Shown here: piece by piece, positions 8,322 to 56,995 of the stretch | Layout: every line of letters starts with the position of its first letter | Position numbering within the stretch: position 1 is the first letter of the stretch | DNA from: Alphaproteobacteria bacterium | Lineage (GTDB): Bacteria; Pseudomonadota; Alphaproteobacteria; UBA828 | Direction of reading: 5' to 3' | Assembly: GCA_963422645.2 (NCBI GenBank) | Contig: CAXXVO010000017.1 | Location: forward strand, 96,001 to 160,000 | DNA length: 64,000 nucleotides | Translations under genes and position numbers: made by a program | The notes under the pieces: generated by a model | Told to the model about the DNA's origin: nothing | What the model saw: only the letters and a program-made list of their open reading frames with translations | Databases searched by the model: none

Positions 8322-8588
8322 GGTGGCAACCTCATTGAGCGATGGGGAGAAAGGCGCGTGTGCGCGCAGTAACGCACGCCGGGGCGGCCCCGCCGGCGCG
8401 GCGGAAATTAGAAGAAGAGCGCGGCGAGCGCAACCTGAGTAGCGCAGACGCGTCGCTCGGCAGCCTACGGGCCTGAGCATAGGATGAACCGGGCAGCAAA
8501 GCGGACCGGAGCGCGCGACTGCGCGCCGCGCCGAACGGCGCGTAGCCAAGCAAGCGGAGCGCGCGCCCGGCGACTGAGGGAAATGAAC

Positions 8589-17842: not shown

Positions 17843-19828
17843 TTAGCCGGTCGCACCATCATCCATCGCACCATCATAGCGTAGCACAACGCAAGTGATA
17901 TCGTCAGACTGCTCCGCCTCGCCGACGAACTTAACCACCGCACTGGTGACATTCTCAAGCACTGAATCGACAGGCAAGTCGCGGGCTTCGGCCAAAACCA
18001 CCTCCAGACGCGCCTCGGTGAACTCCTCGTGATTAACATTCATGGCTTCGGTAATGCCGTCCGTGTAGAGGAACATCGTGTCTCCGGGCGCCAGTGTCAT
18101 CGCGTCTTCGTCGTAGGGCATTCCAGGCATGACGCCCACGGCCATGCCTCCTGTCATCGGCAGAGGCGAGACATCGCCGGGGTGCTTGACGACAAACGGC
18201 GGGTTGTGCCCGGCATTGGCATAGACGAACTCGCCTGTGTCGGGATCCAGAATTCCGTAGAAGAGGGTCACGAACAGATCCTGAGGGTTTTGCTCGCAGA
18301 TGGCGTCGTTGACCTCCTGCAGACAGGGGCCCGGGTTAGGGTGCCGCGCAGCGGCGGCGCGCATGACCGTCCGTGCGATCGCCATGAAGAATGCCGCGGG
18401 TACCCCTTTGCCCGAAACATCTGCCATCACCACGCTGAGACGACCATCGTCCAAAGTGAAGAAGTCGTAGAAGTCGCCGCCCATCTCACGTGCGGGAGTC
18501 ATGACCGCGTGTCCTGAATAAGTCGGATATTCCGGCATCGTCTTGGGCAAGATCGCACCCTGCAGGGCGTGCGCGATCTTGAGCTCCGATTCCATCCGCT
18601 CCTTGGCTTTTTCCAACTGCGCGTTCGACGCCTCTAGTTCGCGGGTGCGGGCGCGGACCATGCTTTCCAGATATTCCTCGCGCGCCTGAACTTGGCGCAC
18701 CATGTTTTGAAACACACGGACAAGTGTGCCGAGCTCGTCCCGCCGGACGGCGACGGAGTCCAGCGTCTCCGGGGCGAAACTTAGCGTATCGGTGTCCACC
18801 TCCGCTGCGGCTGTGGTCAACGCCGTGACCGGCTGCACGATGCGGCGCGCGGAGACTGCTGCGATGATGGAGCCGATGGCGAAGGCTGCTGCGGCTACGA
18901 TCAGACCGTACTTGATGTGGTCCTCAAAGAGCTGATCCAGATGATCCCGCTGCATGTGGATCACTGCAGCGCCCGTGGCGACGCCGCCGCGATCGAGGAT
19001 GGGCGCCGCGACATGGAGAGCGTTTTCGCCGAGATACGATTCCGCGCCGTCGACGCCAAGAACGCGTGTGGCAAGATCCTGGTCGTCCGCAGACAGCGCC
19101 GCGTCGTCCTCGGAGCCGTTCCTACCCTCGAAAGTGGCCATGCCGATGAGGTGGAGAAGGTCGTTGACCACCCAGATCGAGCGAATCGCCTCGCGCCCGG
19201 CCAGCGAGTCCAGCGCCGCCCCGATGCCGATGACGTCGCCGGGGCCGCCGGTCTCGGCTGCCAGCGTGCCGACCAGCACGGTCTCTCGTGTGCCGGCGCG
19301 AACGCCGACGTACCTGATCGGCTTTTCCCACCCCATTGGAGGGACCGACTTAAAGGAGACAGAGAAACGTCGACCCGATACCAGCGCCTCCACGACACGG
19401 GAATCGATTCCGGCGGACGCCAGATCCAGCGCACCGCTCTCGCTGAGGCCACCGACAGCGCGCACCAGCGGCCGACCCGTTTCGCCCAGCAGCCAGATGT
19501 CGTCGACGGCGCTGTCCGCCGTCAACTTGGCGAAATAAATGCCGAGGGTATTCCTGCTCTCCCCCTCATGTGAGTGCTCGTCCAGATGACGAGCGATGGC
19601 CAGAGCCTGCGCTTCCATCTGCGTGACGATCATGCGGTCGATTTCGTCGGCGGTGTGCTCCGCCCGGTTGGCCTCACTAGCGATGAGCCCGGCGACAAGC
19701 AACGCCTGGTCTTCGGCCTGCTCGATCAGTGCGTCGCGCGCGAGAAATCCCATCGCCAGCGCGACACCGACAATCGCCACGCCGACGGACGCCGCAACCG
19801 TGATGATCAAGCGTCTGGAAAGGGTCAA
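17843..19828 (-). CDS. membrane HAMP-domain SpoIIE/PP2C phosphatase (RsbU-like)
   Basis: two TM segments around a large extracytoplasmic region, HAMP (RRDELGTL), GGDFYDF, ADVSGKG, NAGHNPP, YTDGITEA, DDIT. Confidence 0.93.
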   Translation of the reverse strand: MTLSRRLIITVAASVGVAIVGVALAMGFLARDALIEQAEDQALLVAGLIASEANRAEHTADEIDRMIVTQMEAQALAIARHLDEHSHEGESRNTLGIYFAKLTADSAVDDIWLLGETGRPLVRAVGGLSESGALDLASAGIDSRVVEALVSGRRFSVSFKSVPPMGWEKPIRYVGVRAGTRETVLVGTLAAETGGPGDVIGIGAALDSLAGREAIRSIWVVNDLLHLIGMATFEGRNGSEDDAALSADDQDLATRVLGVDGAESYLGENALHVAAPILDRGGVATGAAVIHMQRDHLDQLFEDHIKYGLIVAAAAFAIGSIIAAVSARRIVQPVTALTTAAAEVDTDTLSFAPETLDSVAVRRDELGTLVRVFQNMVRQVQAREEYLESMVRARTRELEASNAQLEKAKERMESELKIAHALQGAILPKTMPEYPTYSGHAVMTPAREMGGDFYDFFTLDDGRLSVVMADVSGKGVPAAFFMAIARTVMRAAAARHPNPGPCLQEVNDAICEQNPQDLFVTLFYGILDPDTGEFVYANAGHNPPFVVKHPGDVSPLPMTGGMAVGVMPGMPYDEDAMTLAPGDTMFLYTDGITEAMNVNHEEFTEARLEVVLAEARDLPVDSVLENVTSAVVKFVGEAEQSDDITCVVLRYDGAMDDGATG

Positions 19829-40618: not shown

Positions 40619-42506
40619 GTAACTGCCCAGGTTCTTGCTGTGAAAATTCTCTGGGATTCGGCACAACGCTACCCACGCGACGCCCGTGTGCTCCTCTGGG
40701 GTCGCCGGGTTTCACAGCTCACGATGCCCCTCTTGCGGACTGCGACCGGTAAGCTACCCCGATGTGGCCCGAAGTCCGCCCGCGCGACGGGCACCGATTT
40801 TCATTCTATGGGGTGGTCCAGCACGGCGTCGACCATGATCGTTTATGAGAATGGCTCCGCTGTTGGAGAACCCGTGCCAGGTGAGCTTACGCGCACTTGA
40901 CGGTGGCGATGAGCCGATCCGATGGGCTGGTCAGGGCTTCGATGATATTCCAGCCCTGCTTTCTGGCGGTGGTGATGACGCTGCGCAGGATGGCGAAGTT
41001 CTCGGCCCCCTGCGCGGACCGGAAGCCCCCGGAGATCTTCTGGCGCAGCTTCATCATCCGAAGGTCGCGCTCGGCCTCGTTGTTCGTGAACCCGACCTCG
41101 AGGTCGATCAGGAACCGGAGCACCGCGCATTTGTGGTCGCGCAGCCTCAAGGCCAGATTGTGACCGATCCTTCGCTTCCGGCGCTTCTTCCTCTTGCCAG
41201 GCGAGAACGGTGGTTGGCTCTCGTGAAAGGCCAGCGCATCGGCGATGATCTCGTCGTATCGGCGCTCGATCAGCGCCACAAGCCTCGCCGGAACGGCGAT
41301 ATCCTTGTCCAGCGCGATGCGGGCGGCGCGATTGGCTCGGCGCAGGAGCTGCTGCATCCGCCGGGCCCAAGCCTCCCCTTCGATGTCCACCAGCGCCTGC
41401 AACTCCCGCAGGTGATGGGCGTTGCACAGGCCGTGCTCCACCCCTTCCATCGCGAAGTACGGCTTCCAGTGATCGTGCACGACGATGCCGGAGACACCCG
41501 AGAGCAGGGCGCCGCGCTTGCCGCTGACCCGGTACGCCGCCAGCAGCGGCGTGCAGATCACATGAAGCCACTGCGTCTGACCGCCGATCCGCAAGCCGGT
41601 CTCGTCCATGTGTTTCACCCGCGCCGTGCCCGCCGCCAGGTCCTGTATGTGCAAGGCCGCGTCCCGCAGCCGCTCGGCCGCCCTCTCGCTCATCGTCGCC
41701 AACGTCGCAGCCGTCACCGGCGCGCCGAAGAGCTCGGCCATCACCTGCGACAGCCGATCCTCCGGCAGGAAGTGAGCGTGCTGAAGGTAGACCGCCACCC
41801 CGGCAATGCGCGGGCCGTACTGCACCGGCGCCGACACCCCGTCGGGGAACGCCGCCCGGGTCACCGTCCCGCAATGCCCGCAGCACTTGGCATGCGCCCG
41901 GTGCTCGGTCACCTCCAGGGGGCTCGGCTCGGGCAGATCGAACACCTGGCGGGCGACGGGCGTTCCCGCCCTGGCCGCGTCCGAAAGCGGCGAACCGCAT
42001 CCCTTGCAGGAAGCCGGGACGTGATCCTTCACCCGATCCGGGTGATCGGCGCGGCGCAGCGTCTTGCCCTTGTGGCCGGGCTGGCCACCGGGCTTGCGGC
42101 CCGATTTGCCGCGCAGGCTTCGGGTTCGCCGCTTCGAATTCGGCTTCCTCAGCCCATCGCTCGAAGGCGGCTTGCCGCTGTTGCCGCTGTTGAGGCCGAG
42201 ACGGCGCTCCAACTCCTCGATGCGCTCGACGAGACGCGCGACTTGCTCTTCCAGCCGCGCGTTCTGCTGCCGAAGCCAGGCATTTTCCTCCCGAAGCCGG
42301 GCGTTCTCCTCCTCCAGGCGGGCGATCTTCTGCGCGGGCGTTTCGGGCGCTGCTCCCGTCGAAGGGCCGCGCGGCGACTCGGGATTGCTCATGTCGTTGT
42401 TGAGTCATTTCCCGAAATTCCCGTCAAGCCCTTTCCACCAACTCCGAACGAGAAACGCCTCAATCCACTGGCCCAAAATGACAAATCAGACGACCTGGGC
42501 AGTTAC
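40619..42506 (-). mobile_element. IS66-family element copy 2, 1888 bp, inverted
   Basis: same TIRs; 8-bp TSD TGATTTTG at 40611-40618 and 42507-42514. Confidence 0.95.
40887..42392 (-). CDS. tnpC: IS66 transposase TnpC
   Basis: same as copy 1 except GHNLAL vs GHNPAL. Confidence 0.95.
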   Translation of the reverse strand: MSNPESPRGPSTGAAPETPAQKIARLEEENARLREENAWLRQQNARLEEQVARLVERIEELERRLGLNSGNSGKPPSSDGLRKPNSKRRTRSLRGKSGRKPGGQPGHKGKTLRRADHPDRVKDHVPASCKGCGSPLSDAARAGTPVARQVFDLPEPSPLEVTEHRAHAKCCGHCGTVTRAAFPDGVSAPVQYGPRIAGVAVYLQHAHFLPEDRLSQVMAELFGAPVTAATLATMSERAAERLRDAALHIQDLAAGTARVKHMDETGLRIGGQTQWLHVICTPLLAAYRVSGKRGALLSGVSGIVVHDHWKPYFAMEGVEHGLCNAHHLRELQALVDIEGEAWARRMQQLLRRANRAARIALDKDIAVPARLVALIERRYDEIIADALAFHESQPPFSPGKRKKRRKRRIGHNLALRLRDHKCAVLRFLIDLEVGFTNNEAERDLRMMKLRQKISGGFRSAQGAENFAILRSVITTARKQGWNIIEALTSPSDRLIATVKCA

Positions 42507-42638: not shown

Positions 42639-42848
42639 GTCACGTGACTCTAAAGTTCGTGGCATAAGTTTTGTTCGACCCTGAGGCAGAAGCGCTTGAC
42701 GGCGGCGAGGATGTCGTCAGCGGACTTGGCCCACTTGAAGGGCTTGGGGTCTTCGTTGTGCTTATCGATGAAGGCCCGGATGTCGGCTTCGAGTTGGCGG
42801 GTCGAGCGGTGCACGCCGCGCTGCAGTTGCTTCCGCGTCAACTCGGCG
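42639..42848 (-). pseudogene. IS630 transposase C-terminal fragment and right end
   Basis: AELTRKQLQRGVHRS...HNEDPKPFKWAKSADDIL; ends at a CTAG site (42636-42639). Confidence 0.85.
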
Positions 42849-42854
42849 TGTAGC

Positions 42855-42898
42855 CGGCCGAAAGTCTTTGCGAATCGCGGCCGGAAGTCTTTGCGAAT
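42855..42898 (+). repeat. two tandem 21-bp end sites CGGCCG(A/G)AAGTCTTTGCGAAT
   Basis: copies at 42855-42875 and 42878-42898. Confidence 0.9.
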
Positions 42899-43020
42899 GG
42901 CCTGGAAAATCGGCTGGTTTTCGGGGCTGAATCGGGCTGGAAAAACCGGCCTGTGCATGGGCCGTGAAGGAGCGCTGCGCGGGGGGTTCAGGGCCCGTGC
43001 ACGGGCGGTGCGTGAGGGTT

Positions 43021-43690
43021 TCAGGCGCGGTCGGGACCGGGGCGGGCGCCGGGGCGGCACGGGCGTTCGAGTTCGGCCTTCCACCATTCGGGGTCTTCGA
43101 CGGCGCGTTCTGCGGCGTCGTATCCGTCGTGACCGGTCCATCTTCCGGGGTCGGCGTCGGCGTACCATCGGCCTGCGCCGCGGTGTCGTTCGAGGGCGTC
43201 GTCGATGCGGGCGATCCCGTCCGCCGGGCGTCCCCGGCAGAAGCGCTCGAAGAAGGCGTTGAGGCGGCATCGGGGGCAGCGTCCGCAGGGCTCTGCCGCG
43301 ACGGTGCATCGCCAGGTGAGCGCCTCCAGCCCGGGCGGGAGCAGGGCCTGGAGCATGAAGCGCCCGGCGACGGGTCCGAAGGGGTCGTCCCGCGACGGCG
43401 GCCACTGCGCGCCGTCCTCCCAGCCGGGGAAGAAGGGGAGTTCCATGGGGACGGCGGTGCGCGCGCGGTAGGCCGGATGCCAGTACATGCGGTGCATGTC
43501 GTCGGCGGTGTCCCACGAGGTGATGCCGAGCATCACCCGGTCGGCGCGGTGCCGTTCGGCCTCGTCGGCGTGGGTTGCGTACCGGTCGAGGCCCCAGGGA
43601 CCGAAGGTGGGGTCGCAGACGCCCTCCCACCCTCTCCCGTCCCTGATCGGGTATCCGGCGCCGGCGTCGAGGTCGAGGCGCAGGGCCACG
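43021..43690 (-). pseudogene. 5'-truncated QueC-like protein
   Basis: LTWRC-TVAAE-PCGRCPRCRL resembles the QueC Zn site TWSCY..PCGxCxxCRLR; PP-loop N-terminus absent; junction position approximate. Confidence 0.5.
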
Positions 43691-44309
43691 GCGCCCACGC
43701 CCGGAACCGTCCGCGTCCACAACGAGAGCGAGACATGGCAGGCGCTCGCCCCGGACCTCGGCGGCCGCGACCTCGACGCAACATCCCGCCTCTTCCGCAA
43801 CCACCTGCTCGGCGGCGCCGGCATGCCCGAGCACTGGTTCGGCGGCGGCGGCGACGTCAACCGCGCAACCGCCGCAGAGATGGGCGATCCCGCCTTCAAG
43901 ACCCTCAAGATGCGCCAGAGGCTGTGGACCGAGATCCTGCGCCGGGCCGCAGACTACGCCATCGCCCGCAGGCTCGACCCCTCCGGCGCATCATGGCCCG
44001 ATCCCGCAGACCCCGCCCTCGCCGTCTCCGTCTCCGTCGAATGGCCCGAGATGGTGGTCGCCGACGCCTCCCGACACGCCGCCGCGCTCGCCCAGACCGC
44101 AGGCGCCGCGGCGCTGGCCATCGAGCGCGGCCTGCTCTCGGACGCCACCGCGCTCCGCGTCATCGCCGCGCTCACCGGGCGCCTCGGCGTCGAGATCGAC
44201 GCCGACGCCGAACTCGAGGCGGCGCGCGAAGACGCCGCCGGACGGGCCGAAGAAGACGCCTTCCGCGAGCCCCCGCAGGACGAGGACGCCGACGACGGCG
44301 AGGCGTAGC
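43690..44309 (+). pseudogene. phage portal protein C-terminal fragment
   Basis: PGTVRVHNESETW...GMPEHWFGGGGDVNRATAAEM; directly upstream of a gpF-like gene; no start codon. Confidence 0.6.
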
Positions 44310-44311
44310 AC

Positions 44312-45250
44312 GTGGCTACCGACCGTCAGCGCGAGCGCAGGCTCAAGGGCGAGCGATCCCGCCGTGCCCGCGCCCTGCCCCGCATCCAGAAGGACACCGC
44401 CGCCGAGGTCGGCCGCATCCTCGGGCGCGCCGAGCGCGACATCCGGGCCACCCTCGCCGGCGCGCCCTCCGATTACCAGGCATGGGCGCTGCCATCCCTC
44501 CAGGCCTCCGTCCGGGACGCCCTCGACAGCCTCGGCGCAGACGCCGGGCAGGCCATGGCCGAGGGCGCAACCCGCGCCTGGGACGCCGGCATCGATACCG
44601 TGGACGCCCCCGTCAACGCCGCCATGCGCCTCGATGCCCCCGACTTCCGCATCGCCGCCGTCCTGCCCGAGGTCGACACCCGCCAGCTCCTCGCCATGCG
44701 ATCCTTCCTCACCGCCAAAATGAAGGACGTCTCCACGACGCTTGCCGAACGCGTCAATACCGAACTCGGCCTGACCATGATCGGAACCCGCAGCGTCGGC
44801 GAGACCACCGGCCGCGTCGCCGCCATCCTCAAGACCGGCGGCAGGTCCCGCGCCCTGACAATCGTGCGGACCGAGCTCGGCCGCGCATACTCCATGGCCG
44901 GACAGCAGCGCATGGAGCAGGCCGCCGGGATCCTGCCGGGGCTGAGGAAGCAGTGGCGACGCTCCGGAAAGCTCAGAAGCCGCATCGCCCACGACGCCGT
45001 CGACGGACAGACCAGGGAAGCCGCCAGGCCCTTCGACGTCGGCGGCGCCTCGCTCATGTACCCCCGCGATCCCGCCGGACCCGCCGCCGAGACGATCAAC
45101 TGCGGATGCCAGTCGCTGCCATGGATGGAAAGCTGGGAGGTCGAGAACCCCGGGCGAAAGCCGTTCTCCGACGAGGAGATCGCACGCGACCCGCGGCGCG
45201 CCGATCTCGAAGGGAAGGAGGCCGGCGCGGGGACAACGCCGGCATCGTAG
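44312..45250 (+). CDS. phage head morphogenesis protein (Mu gpF / SPP1 gp7 family)
   Basis: RALTIVRTELGRAY, KQW, R-x-x-H-x-x-x-DG, LMYPRDP, ETINCGC. Confidence 0.85.
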   Translation: MATDRQRERRLKGERSRRARALPRIQKDTAAEVGRILGRAERDIRATLAGAPSDYQAWALPSLQASVRDALDSLGADAGQAMAEGATRAWDAGIDTVDAPVNAAMRLDAPDFRIAAVLPEVDTRQLLAMRSFLTAKMKDVSTTLAERVNTELGLTMIGTRSVGETTGRVAAILKTGGRSRALTIVRTELGRAYSMAGQQRMEQAAGILPGLRKQWRRSGKLRSRIAHDAVDGQTREAARPFDVGGASLMYPRDPAGPAAETINCGCQSLPWMESWEVENPGRKPFSDEEIARDPRRADLEGKEAGAGTTPAS

Positions 45251-45397
45251 ACCGGGCGAGGCGAAGCACCGCGCCGCACCCCGATTTACCGGCGAATCCG
45301 CACCCCCGGAACCGCGCCGATTTACAGGCCTTTCAGCACCCCTGAAACGCCCCGAAAATCACCGTTTCCAGCCAATTCACGGCCCTTTCCGGGCCGG

Positions 45398-45514
45398 ATT
45401 CGCAAAGACTTTCGTCCGGCCCGCCAGACCCCGGAAACGCCGCCAACCCCTTGACCGTCCGCCCTCTTCCGCCTTCTTCCCGGCATCTTCCGGATTCGCA
45501 ATGACTTTCGTCCC
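45398..45514 (-). repeat. two inverted 21-bp end sites, 75 bp apart
   Basis: 45398-45418 reads CGGACGAAAGTCTTTGCGAAT and 45494-45514 reads GGGACGAAAGTCATTGCGAAT on the minus strand. Confidence 0.9.
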
Positions 45515-45520
45515 CCTACA

Positions 45521-45661
45521 CGGCGAACCAGCGCTCGACCTGATTGATCCACACTTGCCGATGACGGAGCCGGTGGCGACATCGAGGGCGGCGAATAGCG
45601 AAGTGGTGCCGTTGCGCTTGTAATCGTGGGTGCGCCGCTCGGGCGCGCCCGGCAGCATCGG
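45521..45661 (-). pseudogene. IS630 transposase central fragment with internal deletion
   Basis: [37 protein letters not shown] joined out of frame to [10 protein letters not shown]. Confidence 0.85.
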
Positions 45662-45828
45662 CGTATGTCTGACTTGGCTGCTTGCGCCGGCCCGGCGGCG
45701 CGGCCCCTTTGCCAGGGTGTCCCGTCGCGCCGGGGCGCTTGCTCGCAAGGCGCGGCGCTGGACTCGGAACACGCAGCACAGGGAGAGCCGAAACCCGTGG
45801 CTCGTCAGCTTCGCTCGGGTTCGGAGCT

Positions 45829-46676
45829 TCACTTCATGCCCTGGAACCGATCGTCGTTGGTGGATAGCAGCCTTGCCCGATACTCCAGGATCGTCTCGAT
45901 GAGATATCTGTCCAGTTCCACGGTCAGCCCAAGGTTGTCTCGCTCCAGCGATCGGCGGGCAGACGGCGTCATCAGCGCGGTCCGGCAAGGCTCAACCGCC
46001 AAGACCGTCATCTCGGCCGCCTGATCTCCGAAAGCAGCCTCGGCGACCAATACGTCGCCGGGTCCGTACTCGTCCATTCGTGCCCCGGCATCTTCCTCGC
46101 GCGCCATGGCCCGGCCCTGGGTCAGAAACTGCAGGCCCTCCTGCTCCTCGCCTCGCACCACGATGGTATCGCCAGCCTCATACGCGCGACTCCGTAGCCA
46201 GGGCTTGAGCCGTTCCGTCAGGGCCTCGAAACGGGCCTGCCTCTCCACTTCGCGCAACGCGTGGTCGACGGAAAGACCGAACAAGGCGTCCCTCGCGTCG
46301 TCCGACGCATCTTGCAGCCGATCCCACTCGGCGATGACGAGGTCCTCGCAGCGCTCGAGGCCGCGGTCGAGGTCCTCTTCGAAGATCAGACTACGCCACT
46401 CGCCCTCGGGGAGGCCGCGCCGCAGGATCGAACGGACATGCTCCGCCACGGCGCTCAGGACAATGTGCGTCCCCTGGGCGCGCGCCGTCCGGACGGCGCG
46501 GAAAACGATATTCGCGGCCGAAACATCGAAGCCGGAGACCGCGGCGAAGTCCAGCAACAGGCACAGCGGGGCCGGGTCGGCACTGAGGGCTTGCTTGAGA
46601 CGATGCCCCATGGGGGAGGCGTTGCCGAAAATGATGTAACCACGCAGCCTGTAGGCGCGCACACGCTCGCCGTGGT
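45829..46676 (-). pseudogene. C-terminal STAS + cNMP-binding part of a SulP-type transporter, cut by IS21
   Basis: YRLRGYIIFG, LLLDFAAVSGFDVSA, EDLDRGLERCED, cNMP beta-roll (GDTIVVRGE, YGPGDV). Confidence 0.75.
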
Positions 46677-46878: not shown

Positions 46879-47607
46879 TCAGGAGCGGTTCTTGAAGCGC
46901 CAGCTCTCGTTGCCGGTCTCGATGATCTCGCAATGATGGGTGAGGCGATCGAGCAGCGCTGTGGTCATCTTGGGGTCGCCGAAGACGGATGGCCATTCGC
47001 CGAAGGCGAGGTTTGTGGTGATGACGATCGAGGTGCGCTCGTAGAGCCGGCTCATCAGATGGAAGAGCAGCTGCCCACCGGCCTGGGCGAAGGGCAGGTA
47101 GCCGAGCTCGTCGAGGATGACGAAGTCGCGGCGGACGAGCTGGTCTGCAGTGCGGCCCTGGCGTCCGGCGCGAAGCTCGGCCTCGAGGAGGTTGACCAGG
47201 TCGACGACGTTGTAGCACCGGCCGCGCGCGCCCTTGCGGATGCAGGACCGCGCGATGGCGACGGCGAGATGGGTCTTGCCGGTACCGGTGCCGCCGACCA
47301 GCACGATGTTGCGTTTGCCCTCGAGGAAGCCGCCGCCGGCGAGCTCCTGGATCAGGGGCTCGTTGACCGGCGAGGCGGCGAAGTCGAAGTCGGCCAGCTC
47401 CTTGACCGTCGGCAGCTTGGCGGAGGCCATCTGGTACTTGATCGAGCGGGCCCTCTTGTCGGCGATCTCGACCTGCAGCAGCGTACCGATGATCTGTTGC
47501 ACCGGATGGCGGCGCTTGAGCCCGTCGGCAAGGATGTCGTCGTAAGCGGCGCGCATACCTGCGAGCTTCAGCTGGGTCATCATCTCCAGCACATCATGAC
47601 GCTCCAT
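46879..47607 (-). CDS. istB: IS21 ATPase IstB
   Basis: [29 protein letters not shown]. Confidence 0.96.
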
Positions 47608-49108
47608 GACCGGCCTCCCTCAGGCTGTCGTAGCGCTGACAGTCGGCTACCGGCTTGTGGCGAAGCTGCAGGCCCTCGGGCGTCGGGATGATTGCCGGCG
47701 GTGCCGGCTGGCGCTGCCGGGCGAGGATGTTGAGCACCACGTCGGCGCTGCAGGCACCGCAGTCGAGCGTCTCGGCACAGGCCGCCTCAACCGCCTCCAG
47801 TCCGTCCTCCAGCACCGCCGCGAGCACCTTGACGAACTGCCGGTCGCCGTCGTCGTGGCCCGCGAGCCGGGTTCGCAGGCGGCCGAGCGCGTTGGGCAAC
47901 TGCCAGTCCTTGAAGGGCGCGCCATTGCGTAGCGCGCCGGGCTTCCGCGTCAGGATCGGCACGTAATGCCACGGATCGTAGACGAACCGGCCGCGCCCGA
48001 AGCTGCGGGGGTGCTCGGCAACGGTCTCGCCGTCCTGGCGGATGACGATCCGATCGGCATAGGCCCGCACGTCCACCGGCCGGCCGACGGCGCGGGCCGC
48101 GACGCTGTACTGGTTGTTGTCGAAGCGCACCAGACAGGTCTTCGAGACCGACACCTCGCTGGCATGGAAGCCGTCGAAGGGGCCGCGATACGCCATCAGG
48201 AAGGGCTGCTCCTCCTCGAACACCTGCCACACCGTCTTGCCCGGGATTGTCGGATGCGGATGCTTCTTGGCGTCCTCGATGCACCGATCCATCAGCCACT
48301 CGTTGATCTCGGCGTAGGAGCGGCCCCGCGGGATGGGCACGAACAGGCGGCCGCGAAGGTCACCCACCTGCTTCTCGACCTGCCCCTTCTCCCAGCCAGC
48401 CCCTGGCGTGCACGCCACAGGCTCCACCAGATGGTGCGAGCACAGCTCCTGGAAGCGGCGGTTGTAGTCCCGCTTCTTGCCCACGAAGATCGTGCTCACC
48501 GCCGTCTTCATGTTGTCGTAGATGCCCCGCCGGCAGACCCCGCCGAAGAAGCGGAAGGCACGCTCGTGCGCCTCGAAGACCATCTCCTGGCTCTCGCGGG
48601 GAAAGATCTGGACCAGATACATCCGGCTGTGGCACAGCCGCATGTGCGCCGCCTTCACCCTGGTCGTCGCGCCCGACAGACGCGCGTACTCGTGGCTCCA
48701 GTCGAACTGGTAGGCCTCGCCGGGATCGAAGATCAGCGGCACATAGGCCTGCGCCGGCGACAACAGCCGCCACCGGCGCCGCCAGGCCCTGGCATAGCGG
48801 CGAACCGCGTCATAGCCGCCCTTGTAGCCCAGCGACACAAGGTCTTCATGAATCCGCAGAAGAGACAGCCGATCCTTGCGTGCCTTCTTCTCGTTGGCCT
48901 TCAGCTGGCGCTCAAGCTCCTCCACCCACAGCCCAAGCTTCGGCATCGGCTGGATCTTGCGCTCGTAGCTGTGCGAGGTCGCATCGCCCCGCACCACCTT
49001 GCGTATCGTGTTCTTGGAAACCCTCAAATCCCGGGCGAGCTTCTTGATCGGAACGCCCTTCACCAGATGATCCCGACGGATCTTCGCGATCGTTTCCACA
49101 ACCAGCAT
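47594..49108 (-). CDS. istA: IS21 transposase IstA
   Basis: [35 protein letters not shown]. Confidence 0.96.
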
Positions 49109-49377
49109 CTCCCCCACCACCCCGTCCGTCCAAACGACGAGGTGTGTTCATGGACACAAATCCAAGGGGGTCAATTTTGGACGCCGATCACCCCCAATAG
49201 GGGGTCACTTTTCCACGCTTAACAACAGTCCGACTCGCGCACGTGTCCCCGGCGCCTCGACGATCGGAGCTCGCACGTCGGGATCGCCGCCGCACGAGAC
49301 CGTCAGGTGGCCGCCACGAGCAAGAGGGGGCCGGTCGAGTGTCGCGGACGGGCTCCCGTCCGCATCCCCGCCTGCGC

Positions 49378-54160: not shown

Positions 54161-54315
54161 CGGTGTCGCACTGGCACGAAGACCTCGCCGCCCGTAACGA
54201 GGCCTTCTGCTGCCTGTGAGCGTGCGCCCAGCATTTGATGGTGCGGTTTTCGGATTATTTGATGTTCGTGATGCGGCGCTTGGTTGATCTGCGAGAGCGG
54301 TGAGTGGCCTGGCTT

Positions 54316-55185
54316 TCATCGAGACCGCAGGAGCATCTCGTTCCAGTCCTTGGCGTGTCGTGGGCGCAACCTTTTCACCCTTGGATCGTTGAGCACGAGA
54401 TGCTCGGCGGCAGTGTCGCCGGCGCTGTCTGCGTCGTAGGCACAGACGATGCGACGTGGCTTCCACTCCTTGATCCAGGGCGGGACCGAGCTGGCGATGC
54501 CGGCGGTTGAGGCGACGACGGCGCCGTTCTCGCGCGTCCCCTCGACGCGCAGGCTTCGTGCAGAGATGGCGTCGACGGCGCTCTCGGTGAGGATGACGAG
54601 GGCGGGCTGGTTTCGGTCGCAGTGGAGCCAGAAGCCGCCACGCGCCTTGCGCGATCCCGGGGCCATGCCCCTGAAGCGTTTTGTTCCGGGCTGCGGCGCG
54701 GTGCCGAGGATCTCGGCGCCGGTCGTGTGCCCGCTGGCGTTTCGGCAGATGAAGACGGCGTTGATCCTGTCATCGGCGTAGAGGAGGCCTCGGCCGTGGC
54801 AGGCTTCGAGCACGTCGGTGCCGATAGCGCGTTGGCGGATGAGGGCGTCCCGGACCCTGGGCCAGGCGCGGGGACTGGGCCTTGGCAGCCGCAGGCGTCG
54901 CGGGGCGGCTGGGATGGTGGTGATCTCCCTCCGCCCCTCATGGCTTCCGAGGAAGCGGAGGGCTTCCGGGAAGCGGCATCCCGTCGCATGGATGACGAGG
55001 TCGATGGCGCCACCCCCTCCCGTGCCGCGCAGGTGATCGAAGAACTTCTCGCCGTTGATGCTGATGACCGAGCCCCCGCGCTTGAAGCGCGCCCGGTCGG
55101 TCGGGTCTCTGCGGTAGCCGAGGGCGGCGGCGACCCGGTCGAGGGGGATGTTGCGGCAGGTGGCCAGGGGATCGCCGCCGCTCAT
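54316..55185 (-). CDS. primase-like protein (DUF3991 + Toprim)
   Basis: GGGAIDLV, LTESAVDAIS, CAYDADSAG, KDWNE. Confidence 0.8.
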   Translation of the reverse strand: MSGGDPLATCRNIPLDRVAAALGYRRDPTDRARFKRGGSVISINGEKFFDHLRGTGGGGAIDLVIHATGCRFPEALRFLGSHEGRREITTIPAAPRRLRLPRPSPRAWPRVRDALIRQRAIGTDVLEACHGRGLLYADDRINAVFICRNASGHTTGAEILGTAPQPGTKRFRGMAPGSRKARGGFWLHCDRNQPALVILTESAVDAISARSLRVEGTRENGAVVASTAGIASSVPPWIKEWKPRRIVCAYDADSAGDTAAEHLVLNDPRVKRLRPRHAKDWNEMLLRSR

Positions 55186-55226
55186 TGCCGGGTCCCGGCG
55201 AAGGTCTGCTTGGAAGGGAGGCTGAC

Positions 55227-55287
55227 GGCGTTCCCGTTCCTGTACCCTTCAACGCTTAAGAGTTCCGGGAACGGGAACGGGAACGCC
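55227..55287. repeat. 14-bp perfect inverted repeat with (CGGGAA)x3, origin-like
   Basis: GGCGTTCCCGTTCC 55227-55240 / GGAACGGGAACGCC 55274-55287. Confidence 0.75.
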
Positions 55288-56286
55288 TCATCCCGCACTT
55301 CCGTTGATGGCGGCAGGGGATTGCGGCTCCCGGTGCGCCTCGGCGGCTGCGAGGCGATAGCCACCCCTGGGCGCCCGTTCGATGCGCCCCTCCCTGGTGA
55401 GGCTCTCGATGGCGGCAACGACGGTGGCGTTGCGGGCAGCGGCGCGTGAGCGGATCTGGGCTTTCGAGAGCGGCTTTTCGGCCTGCTCGATCGCCTTGAA
55501 GACGCGCTGCTCGACGGTGGCGGGCTCGTGCCTGTCTTCATCTGCCGCGTCCTGGTGCAGACGGAAGGCCGGCCCATGTCCGCCGTCGACGAGTTCCAGC
55601 TCGATGTCGTTGAGGCCCCGGGCGTCGCGCTGCTCGACCGTCATGACGATCTTCTTGTCGCGCCGGCGCAGGTACAGATTTGAGTCACCCCAAGCGTGCA
55701 GCTCGCTGCTCCCGCGCAGGGCCTGCCCCGGCCGGGTGCCGCCGCTCTTGCGGGCGTGGTGGACGAGGAGGACGGCGGTTTCGAAGCGGCGCTGCAGTTC
55801 GCGCAGGAAGCCGAGGATGGGGGCGATCTCTGCGACGGCGTTCTCGTCGACGCTGTGCAGGCGGACCAGGGGATCGAGGATCAGGAGGCGCGGTTCGATG
55901 CGCTCCACGGTCTGCTGCAGGCGTTGACGGTCGCCGGGCCGGTCGAGACGCAGGGTGGGCACGTCGATGACGGCGATGTCGAGTTCGTCGAAGGGGGTGG
56001 CGGCGGCGCGGGCGATCCCCTGCAGACGCTTGCGCACCCTGTGGCCGGCGTCCTCGGCGGCGAAGAGCAGCACGGTGCCGCTTGCGCTGGGGCGGTAGTG
56101 GCGCAGGCATGGGACGCCGGTGGCCACGGCGACGGCGAGATCGAGCGCGAGCAGGGATTTGCCGCACTTGGGCTCGCCGCCGACGATGCCCACGGCCTGC
56201 TCGGCCCACAGCGTGTCCACCATCCACTGTTGCGCCCGGGGGCGATCCTCGAGCTGCATCGGCGCCCGTGTCGGGAAGCCCTTCAC
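55288..56286 (-). CDS. AAA_25 / RepA-like SF4 helicase with C-terminal wHTH
   Basis: GGEPKCGKS, FAAED, LILDPL, LVHHARK, LRGSSEL; GTGA overlap with upstream ATPase. Confidence 0.82.
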   Translation of the reverse strand: MKGFPTRAPMQLEDRPRAQQWMVDTLWAEQAVGIVGGEPKCGKSLLALDLAVAVATGVPCLRHYRPSASGTVLLFAAEDAGHRVRKRLQGIARAAATPFDELDIAVIDVPTLRLDRPGDRQRLQQTVERIEPRLLILDPLVRLHSVDENAVAEIAPILGFLRELQRRFETAVLLVHHARKSGGTRPGQALRGSSELHAWGDSNLYLRRRDKKIVMTVEQRDARGLNDIELELVDGGHGPAFRLHQDAADEDRHEPATVEQRVFKAIEQAEKPLSKAQIRSRAAARNATVVAAIESLTREGRIERAPRGGYRLAAAEAHREPQSPAAINGSAG

Positions 56287-56995
56287 CGCCGTGCCCTCTT
56301 CGGCTTGGCGGGCTCGCCCAGGATCTCCATGAAGAGCTTCTCGTCGAGAACCTCGCGGTTCTTCTCGGCGCCGGCGGCGAGCAGCATGTCGCCCATGACG
56401 GTAAGCGCCCTGGGGTTGCCGCCGGCGTGGGTGACCAGGGTGTCCTTGAGCTCTGCGCTCATGAGGCCCGGATTGCCGGCCTGCTCGACCAGATGGTCGA
56501 GCAGGGCCGCGAGGTCGCCGGCGTCTGCCTGGGTCATGACCAGGCGCTGGCGCAGGCGCGAGGCGATGGGCTGCAAGTCGGGCTGGCGGAGCCTGTCGAT
56601 CAGGCGGCTGTCGCCGGCGAAGACGACCGAGAGGATGGCGCGCGAGTCGAAGTCGGTGGACGCCAGCAGGCGGATCTCGGAGATCACCGAGGGCAGCAGC
56701 TCCTGGGCCTCGTCGATGAGCACCACGGGCCGCATGCGGGTGTCGTCGACATGGGTGAGCCATCGCTCGCGCAGGTTTTTGAAGCTGGCCCAGCGGTTGT
56801 TGTACATCAGGTCGACGCCGAACATCCCGCCGATCTCGCGGTAGAAGTCGGACAGCCTGGAAGAGGGGTGGGTGATGGCACAGACCCTGAGCCCGTCCGA
56901 GCGGCCGAGGCGGTCGGCGAGCACGCGCAACGCCACGCTCTTTCCGGTGCCGGGCTCGCCGGCGATCAACGCGAAGCCGCCCTGGCTGAGCTCCG
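56283..56995 (-). pseudogene. ExeA/TniB-like AAA ATPase, 5'-truncated
   Basis: GFALIAGEPGTGKS, VLIDEAQE, SRL, GGNPRAL. Confidence 0.75.

Follow-up and report, generated by a model that had tools for sequence, protein, structure and literature searches.

A 2.67-kb element with Mu-type ends in an alphaproteobacterial genome, probably the relic of an internally deleted prophage

The stretch of DNA analysed here (the window) comprises 64 kb of the genome of Alphaproteobacteria bacterium (UBA828; assembly GCA_963422645.2, contig CAXXVO010000017.1, positions 96,001–160,000) and holds, at 42849–45520, a 2672-bp element with termini TGTAG...CTACA. This element is probably what an internal deletion has left of a Mu-type prophage: a non-autonomous relic, inserted by transposition, deleted in place and currently immobile. 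A first-pass annotation, made from the sequence before any search, had proposed a natural mini-Mu, left by one large deletion in a transposable prophage, that a helper could still mobilise in trans. Coordinates given without a contig are window positions, C numbers denote contigs and G000 is the genome holding the window, which corresponds to G000:C18:96001-160000.

Results

The left terminus of the element, TGTAGCCGGCCGAAAGTCTTTGCGAATC, starts at 42849, and positions 45493–45520 read TGTAGGGGGACGAAAGTCATTGCGAATC when reverse-complemented; inspection of the sequence found both termini exactly as the first-pass annotation had quoted them. The pentamer CGGCG lies immediately outside both ends, and the flanks are the two degenerate halves of an IS630-type transposase gene which the element splits (Table 1). 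In all five paralogous IS630-type copies examined (85–90% identical) the site is uninterrupted, reading ...CTCGGCGAACCAGCG... with a single CGGCG. The element has thus truly inserted at this site and duplicated 5 bp, and the direct repeat reported earlier is a real target site duplication (TSD). An intact paralog of the split gene encodes a 367-amino acid (aa) transposase with HTH and DDE_3 domains.

A 15-nt core, GAAGTCWTTGCGAAT, allowed up to one mismatch, has four matches in the 64-kb window (+ 42861, + 42884, − 45398 and − 45494), all of them within the element, and none of 100 shuffles gave any match. The left cores abut, 23 bp from start to start, as had been noted, and the right pair is inverted, with 96 bp from start to start and 81 bp between cores; two spaced sites had been recognised at this end too, but their distance had been given as 75 bp, a figure which depends on where the edges of the sites are drawn. 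The four repeats look like putative transposase-binding sites, arranged differently at the two ends. In Mu, attR carries abutting sites and attL a terminal site with one or more spaced inner sites. We label ends with abutting sites, R-like in terms of Mu, as L-type (La and Lb), and ends with spaced sites, L-like in terms of Mu, as R-type (Ra and Rb).

Three pieces of cargo were identified by tblastn with proteins from longer sister copies of the element. The first, here called La298, is always the last gene before La ends and has 14 near-full copies in the genome; profile searches found no Pfam family and no PHROG family for it. The second is a portal remnant, whose full-length homologue matches a PHROG portal family at 3.3e-57. 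The third was correctly recognised at first pass as an intact gpF-like gene: it matches a PHROG head morphogenesis family at 2e-31 and PF04233 at 25.6 bits, below the cut-off of 29.6, while the F protein of one sister copy (L012) scores 34.8 bits. In a phage database one close record only was found, Microcystis phage Mae-JY22 (portal 52%, F 43%). No transposase domain was detected, in line with the earlier description, as Pfam searches of the three internal open reading frames (ORFs) and the two flanking fragments matched only Phage_Mu_F.

La298 and the portal remnant, both truncated at the 5' end, meet head to head. This junction had been placed near 43690; it is real but lies slightly to the left (Table 1), where the pentamer AGGGC is found in both parent-like sequences. 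It is also the sole interval of the element spanned by no other locus in G000, and exactly one internal junction accounts for the whole structure, as the proposal of a single large deletion would have it.

Taken together, these findings show that DDE (MuA-type) transposition brought a phage genome with this pair of ends into the IS630-type gene and duplicated 5 bp. In its full-length form the family runs from the R-like end through tail, head, regulator, MuA and early genes, terminase, portal and F to the L-like end, and the element departs from this layout by one deletion, joined at the 5-bp microhomology, of everything between La298 codon 43 and portal codon 271. The deletion probably occurred in place, by illegitimate recombination, after insertion of the longer copy, a fate which at least 19 other copies in G000 probably met as well. 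As both ends and their site arrays are kept, cognate MuA and MuB supplied in trans could in principle move the element.

Table 1 Features of the element and of its insertion target.
Feature	Position	Strand	Basis
IS630-type (DDE_3) transposase pseudogene, 3' part, insertion target	42650–42848	−	Comparison with paralogs
Left TSD copy, CGGCG	42844–42848		Single CGGCG in paralogous empty sites
R-like end, type La: TGTAG and two abutting site-like repeats (cores 42861, 42884)	42849–42900	+	End type found 29 times in the genome
La298, 5'-truncated remnant, aa 43–298 of 298, last gene before La end	43021–43686	−	tblastn
Single deletion junction, 5-bp microhomology AGGGC	43682–43686		Alignment to L-side and R-side parent-like copies
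Portal, 5'-truncated remnant, aa 271–476 of 476 (C-terminal 206 codons)	43687–44308	+	tblastn
Mu F-like head-morphogenesis gene, intact, 312 aa	44312–45250	+	Pfam, PHROG
L-like end, type Ra: inner site core 45398–45412, spacer, terminal site core 45494–45508, ending ...CTACA	45251–45520	−	24 Ra ends in the genome
Right TSD copy, CGGCG	45521–45525		Single CGGCG in paralogous empty sites
IS630-type transposase pseudogene, 5' part, ~180-bp internal deletion relative to paralogs	45521–45988	−	DDE_3 at E = 0.26 only

The element belongs to an unusually large family in G000. A motif scan found 86 termini (29 La, 12 Lb, 24 Ra and 21 Rb), which begin with TGTAG in 83 cases and with TGTGG in three, and an independent pattern search gave 85 matches, against none for the reversed control pattern. 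Among 36 facing pairs less than 70 kb apart, 20 are flanked by a perfect 5-bp TSD; in a control that compared the 5 bp lying just beyond, none of the 36 matched. Every one of the 20 joins an L-type to an R-type end (9 La-Ra, 6 Lb-Ra, 3 Lb-Rb and 2 La-Rb), with 19 distinct TSD words and sizes from 893 to 22,672 bp. Each of the 20 has one or more junctions that no other site in the genome shows, as independent decay in place would predict, and none matches another G000 locus in structure. Simple central deletions are common, such as Ra-FΔ/La298Δ-La (893 bp), Lb-p146/FΔ-Ra (1127 bp) and Ra-F-portal-TerLΔ/2OG-p146-Lb (4539 bp), where the slash marks the join. Counting one-ended copies together with those flanked by a TSD, G000 holds at least 43 relics of this phage family.

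The longer copies encode proteins with Pfam matches to GemA, SLT, Mu gp27, large terminase, Portal_Mu, Mu F, a cement protein, a major capsid protein (weak match), Mu gp36, a Mu G-type virion morphogenesis protein, a J-like tip protein, glycine-rich proteins and a 2OG-Fe(II) oxygenase, to which PHROGs adds a head maturation protease. Mapping by tblastn showed that tail-side genes always read toward or abut L-type ends, and that terminase, portal and F are always directed toward R-type ends. Ratios of nonsynonymous to synonymous substitution rates among copies (F 0.52, 43 pairs; La298 0.53, 35 pairs; portal 0.28, 5 pairs) are intermediate and do not separate serial lysogeny from spread within the genome. 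Among the 46 unpaired ends, six of 525 cross-contig L-R combinations have a TSD word in common, against none in the control; C5:244783 and C6:164266, for example, lie on different contigs and are both flanked by CACAT. These matches indicate that recombination between dispersed copies, or between the transposons nested in them, has rearranged the chromosome.

A full-length relative was found in G006, a genome of the same genus and the only one among 40 relatives searched in which the end pattern matched. Its apparently intact Mu-like prophage, of at least 45.4 kb, is split over C30:8585-36107 and C24:1-17925 (L041, L042 and L048), and GCGGT, on the outer flanks of both contigs, is its own 5-bp TSD, so that the two contigs hold one prophage. 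On C30 the R-like end at 8585 is followed by DUF6950, 2OG oxygenase, gp48, baseplate J, gp46, PAAR, gp45, gp44, tape measure, sheath, gp37, gp36, Mu gpT, Mu protease I and D12 methylase genes, with an HTH repressor-like gene at the contig end. C24 carries early genes, MuA (DDE_2, HTH_Tnp_Mu_2 and Mu-transpos_C domains), Gam, GemA, SLT, gp27, terminase, Portal_Mu and F, which ends about 245 bp before the L-like terminus at 17925. The first-pass annotation had suggested that a full-length prophage with these ends and MuA/MuB genes would identify the parent, and G006 provides one with related ends and a MuA gene. Its tail is of the myovirus type, and the relics in G000 have a J-like tip protein, which makes the family mosaic in its tail module.

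In the window, in more than 12 sister copies, in G006 and at a locus of a further genome, G041 (L061, with the order terminase-portal-F-end), no gene lies between F and one of the ends, toward which F is transcribed. That head genes run into the L-like end had been remarked upon as a departure from the gene order of Mu, which it is; the arrangement in G006 and G041 implies, however, that it is the native layout of the family and not a consequence of the collapse, and a similar order occurs in phage KS10.

No MuA gene was detected in G000: PF02914 and PF09299 had no match, in a search which finds the MuA of G006 at 8.1e-46, and tblastn of G006 MuA against G000 gave 0 matches at 1e-6, although other phage proteins of G006 do match (TerL 7, F 9 and portal 5). 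As the cognate transposase gene is absent from the assembly, the element is currently immobile. In both loci that retain remnants of the early region (C8 at ~89–95 kb and C16 at ~156–160 kb), an IS21 copy sits at the position that MuA occupies in G006.

Two other sources of mobility were considered and rejected. The rve transposase and AAA_22 ATPase pair found inside several longer copies belongs to a separate 5189-bp transposon with unrelated ends (TGAGCG...CGCTCA) and many standalone copies. This transposon, which has primase-like and RecA-like genes, encodes orf205 (205 aa), the rve transposase (PHROG transposase, 1e-33), the AAA_22 ATPase, AAA_25 and DUF3991/Toprim. It is present in about 13 full and 25–30 partial copies, 99.5–100% identical (one 89%) and often in or beside Mu-type relics; a full copy lies, for example, at G000:C8:135589-140777 (L080:190-5378). 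The IstA and IstB proteins of IS21 were equally discarded as mobilisers, since the site motif was found neither in IS21, including its ends, nor in the 5189-bp transposon, with up to 4 mismatches in 17 bases.

Both of these elements are frequent companions of the relics. Of the 66 full IS21 copies in G000, 16 lie within 700 bp of Mu-type ends, at many positions, which suggests either that IS21 prefers to insert near such ends or that recombination between IS copies has deleted the interiors of elements. One relic (C10:36829-39703, 2875 bp, TSD ACCAT) consists of little beyond an IS21 copy between two Mu-type ends. The elements at C9:570772 and C19:136610, whose opposite ends differ (La versus Lb), each carry IS21 exactly 198 bp from the Ra tip and in the same orientation, which may reflect either transposition of a derived element or a target preference of IS21. 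At another locus (L014, C8:812891/812892) the 5189-bp transposon adjoins a portal remnant, and this boundary is only 2 bp away from where the window's junction lies; the portal gene has thus been broken twice, independently, at almost the same codon (267 in L014, 271 in the window). The sequence of the window's junction is not derivable from that arrangement, and we take the proximity as coincidence or as a fragile spot.

Small elements with these ends do seem able to move elsewhere. A scan of genome contigs with the end pattern (up to 3 mismatches; 0 control matches) gave 20 matches in G041 and five in G042, both chromosomes of alphaproteobacterial metagenome-assembled genomes, and neither has a match to PF02914. 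G041 holds small elements bounded by R-type and L-type ends. Two of these minis, of 1284 and 1291 bp, are 93% identical over their whole length and have perfect but different TSDs, GCGAT and ACGAG; a third, of 1081 bp (TSD GTGTC), is the 1.3-kb element with an internal deletion. A second pair comprises elements of 918 bp (TSD GCCAG) and 993 bp (TSD matching at 4 of 5 positions), 95% identical over 649 bp, and G042 has a 3999-bp element with TSD AAGAG. The presence of the 1.3-kb form at several loci with different TSDs supports, in G041 only, the view that minis of this end family can move. The G041 minis of about 1 kb (e.g. L064:335-1252) carry a poly-G tract of 10–18 bases whose length varies between copies, their internal segments match many other G041 loci and no convincing ORF was found in them.

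The situation in the window is different. The first-pass annotation had pointed out that the same junction at other loci with different TSDs would show movement as a mini element, and that a single copy would mark a relic deleted in place. The junction was found at one locus in G000, with no second copy, and its 31-mer had 0 matches in a scan of metagenome contigs, which by that reasoning makes the element an in-place deletion relic. Of the idea that a helper could mobilise it, what holds is that both ends are kept and that minis move in G041; the single-copy junction and the lack of MuA in G000 speak against it.

Logan contigs of four public sequencing runs stop at 43682/43686 and continue as parental sequences, and none of those listed bridges 43686, although repeats of this kind always interrupt unitigs. 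A single Logan contig of run X5 joins 42843 to 45521 (2677 skipped, 5 letters shared, side 28, depth 7.4), which could represent an empty site, in a strain or subpopulation lacking the insertion, or a near-identical paralog.

The element is surrounded by other mobile DNA. About 460 bp to its left stands an IS66-family transposase gene (40887–42392), a STAS/cNMP-binding gene (45829–46662; 276 aa, probably truncated) lies to its right, and further along are an IS21 copy (46879–49120; IstA 508 aa, IstB 242 aa) and a remnant of the 5189-bp transposon (54217–56986).

Discussion

Several points weigh against an origin by deletion in place. The order of deletion and insertion is unreadable from one genome, in which a mini that had moved once would look identical, and minis of this family do move, judging from the 1.3-kb form of G041. 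The left 838 bp of the element are 100% identical to the copy at C8:583393 and the right part is at most 98% identical to any copy over long stretches, which may mean that the element is mosaic or gene-converted, or that its donor was lost. Mu-type lytic growth is lethal, which makes dozens of full-length insertions in a single lineage difficult to explain, and the junction itself is seen in this assembly only. It is conceivable, then, that the element arrived already 2.67 kb long, as a natural mini-Mu moved in trans by a since-lost helper prophage or by an infecting relative. Both ends and all four sites are intact, the perfect identity of the left arm suggests a recent event, the minis of G041 have spread, and at least 43 insertions per genome would be easier to survive if most of them were defective. 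We consider this unlikely, however, given that the junction is single-copy, that the 20 paired elements all differ in structure from every other locus and that no helper is present in the assembly; deletion in place after insertion of a longer copy remains the explanation that we favour.

That the junction might instead be an assembly artefact, in which a longer element was collapsed by joining two repeat families, would agree with the high copy number of both halves and with Logan contigs which end exactly at the join. This seems very improbable, as an overlap of 5 bp is too short for an assembler to join, a single gene lies split on either side of the element, with TSD copies that match, and a missing bridge is uninformative where unitigs break anyway. 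We give even less credence to the suggestion that the ends are those of a Tn7/Tn5053-type transposon unrelated to phage, with phage genes as incidental cargo. TGT ends, a 5-bp TSD and multiple subterminal repeats would fit such transposons as well, and an rve transposase with an AAA_22 ATPase does occur inside several longer elements. That pair, however, lies in a transposon with ends of its own which lack the site motif, what these end types bound in the full-length relative is a complete Mu-like prophage that encodes a DDE_2 MuA, and tail genes always abut L-type ends, with F and portal always at R-type ends. The origin from a Mu-type transposable prophage, and not from a Tn7/Tn5053-type transposon, as proposed at first pass, is therefore well supported by the relative in G006.

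G000, with 86 such ends, and G041 and G042, with 20 and five matches to the end pattern, all lack a MuA gene. As a speculation which we hold to be possible, if on balance doubtful, natural mini-Mus may form a recurrent class of hitch-hikers on transposable phages, retaining the two site arrays alone, moved by pulses of MuA and MuB from helper phages, either incoming or transient, and accumulating in the manner of miniature inverted-repeat transposable elements (MITEs). Template switching at microhomologies in the course of replicative transposition could even generate the many unique deletions, in which case most new copies would be born defective and the cell would survive. We found no paper describing natural mini-Mu families in the literature searched, subscription journals being largely outside reach.

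Defective prophages are ordinary. What distinguishes this genome is the presence of at least 43 relics, with apparently usable ends and none with a transposase, so that a transposable phage has behaved over evolutionary time like a family of insertion sequences, and its relics have become dispersed homology through which the chromosome has been rearranged. Together with the multi-copy minis of G041, they make it testable whether, in nature, resident non-autonomous elements are moved by the transposases of phages. The ends, of 50 bp and about 130 bp, and the MuA of G006 could also serve in building a mini-Mu-style tool for high-GC Alphaproteobacteria.

The element resembles Mu in its TG...CA termini, the 5-bp target duplication and the putative sites that abut at one end and are spaced at the other, and its sister copies encode homologues of F, portal, gp27, GemA, gp36 and G, but gene order in the parent family is not that of Mu. 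Like laboratory mini-Mus it keeps both ends and lacks the A and B genes; unlike them, it is natural, carries gene debris instead of a marker and has no helper in the cell. It shares with Tn7 and Tn5053/Tn402 its TGT ends, the subterminal repeats arrayed at them and a duplication of 5 bp, but no TnsB/TniA-TnsC/TniB-TniQ module belongs to its ends, and its full-length relative is a phage. Retained ends, a lost transposase and heterogeneous internal deletions with short microhomology are likewise found in Ds, in non-autonomous P elements and in bacterial MITEs, and the multi-copy form of about 1.3 kb in G041 extends this likeness; here, however, the parent is a phage of about 45 kb and not a small transposon, and every derivative in G000 is unique.

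With respect to gene order the closest parallel is KS10, a transposable phage of Burkholderia. According to its published description, the F-like gp1 ('virion morphogenesis') lies at 205–1437 on the minus strand, beside the left end, and is followed on the same strand by portal, terminase, lysis genes and the repressor, with protease, head and tail genes reaching to the right end (PMC2628397). In both KS10 and the element, therefore, head-packaging genes read into one end. The same description gives KS10 a D3112-like transposase and neither TG...CA termini nor flanking direct repeats (PMC2628397), whereas the transposase of the G006 relative is a DDE_2 MuA, encoded on the same arm as terminase, portal and F.

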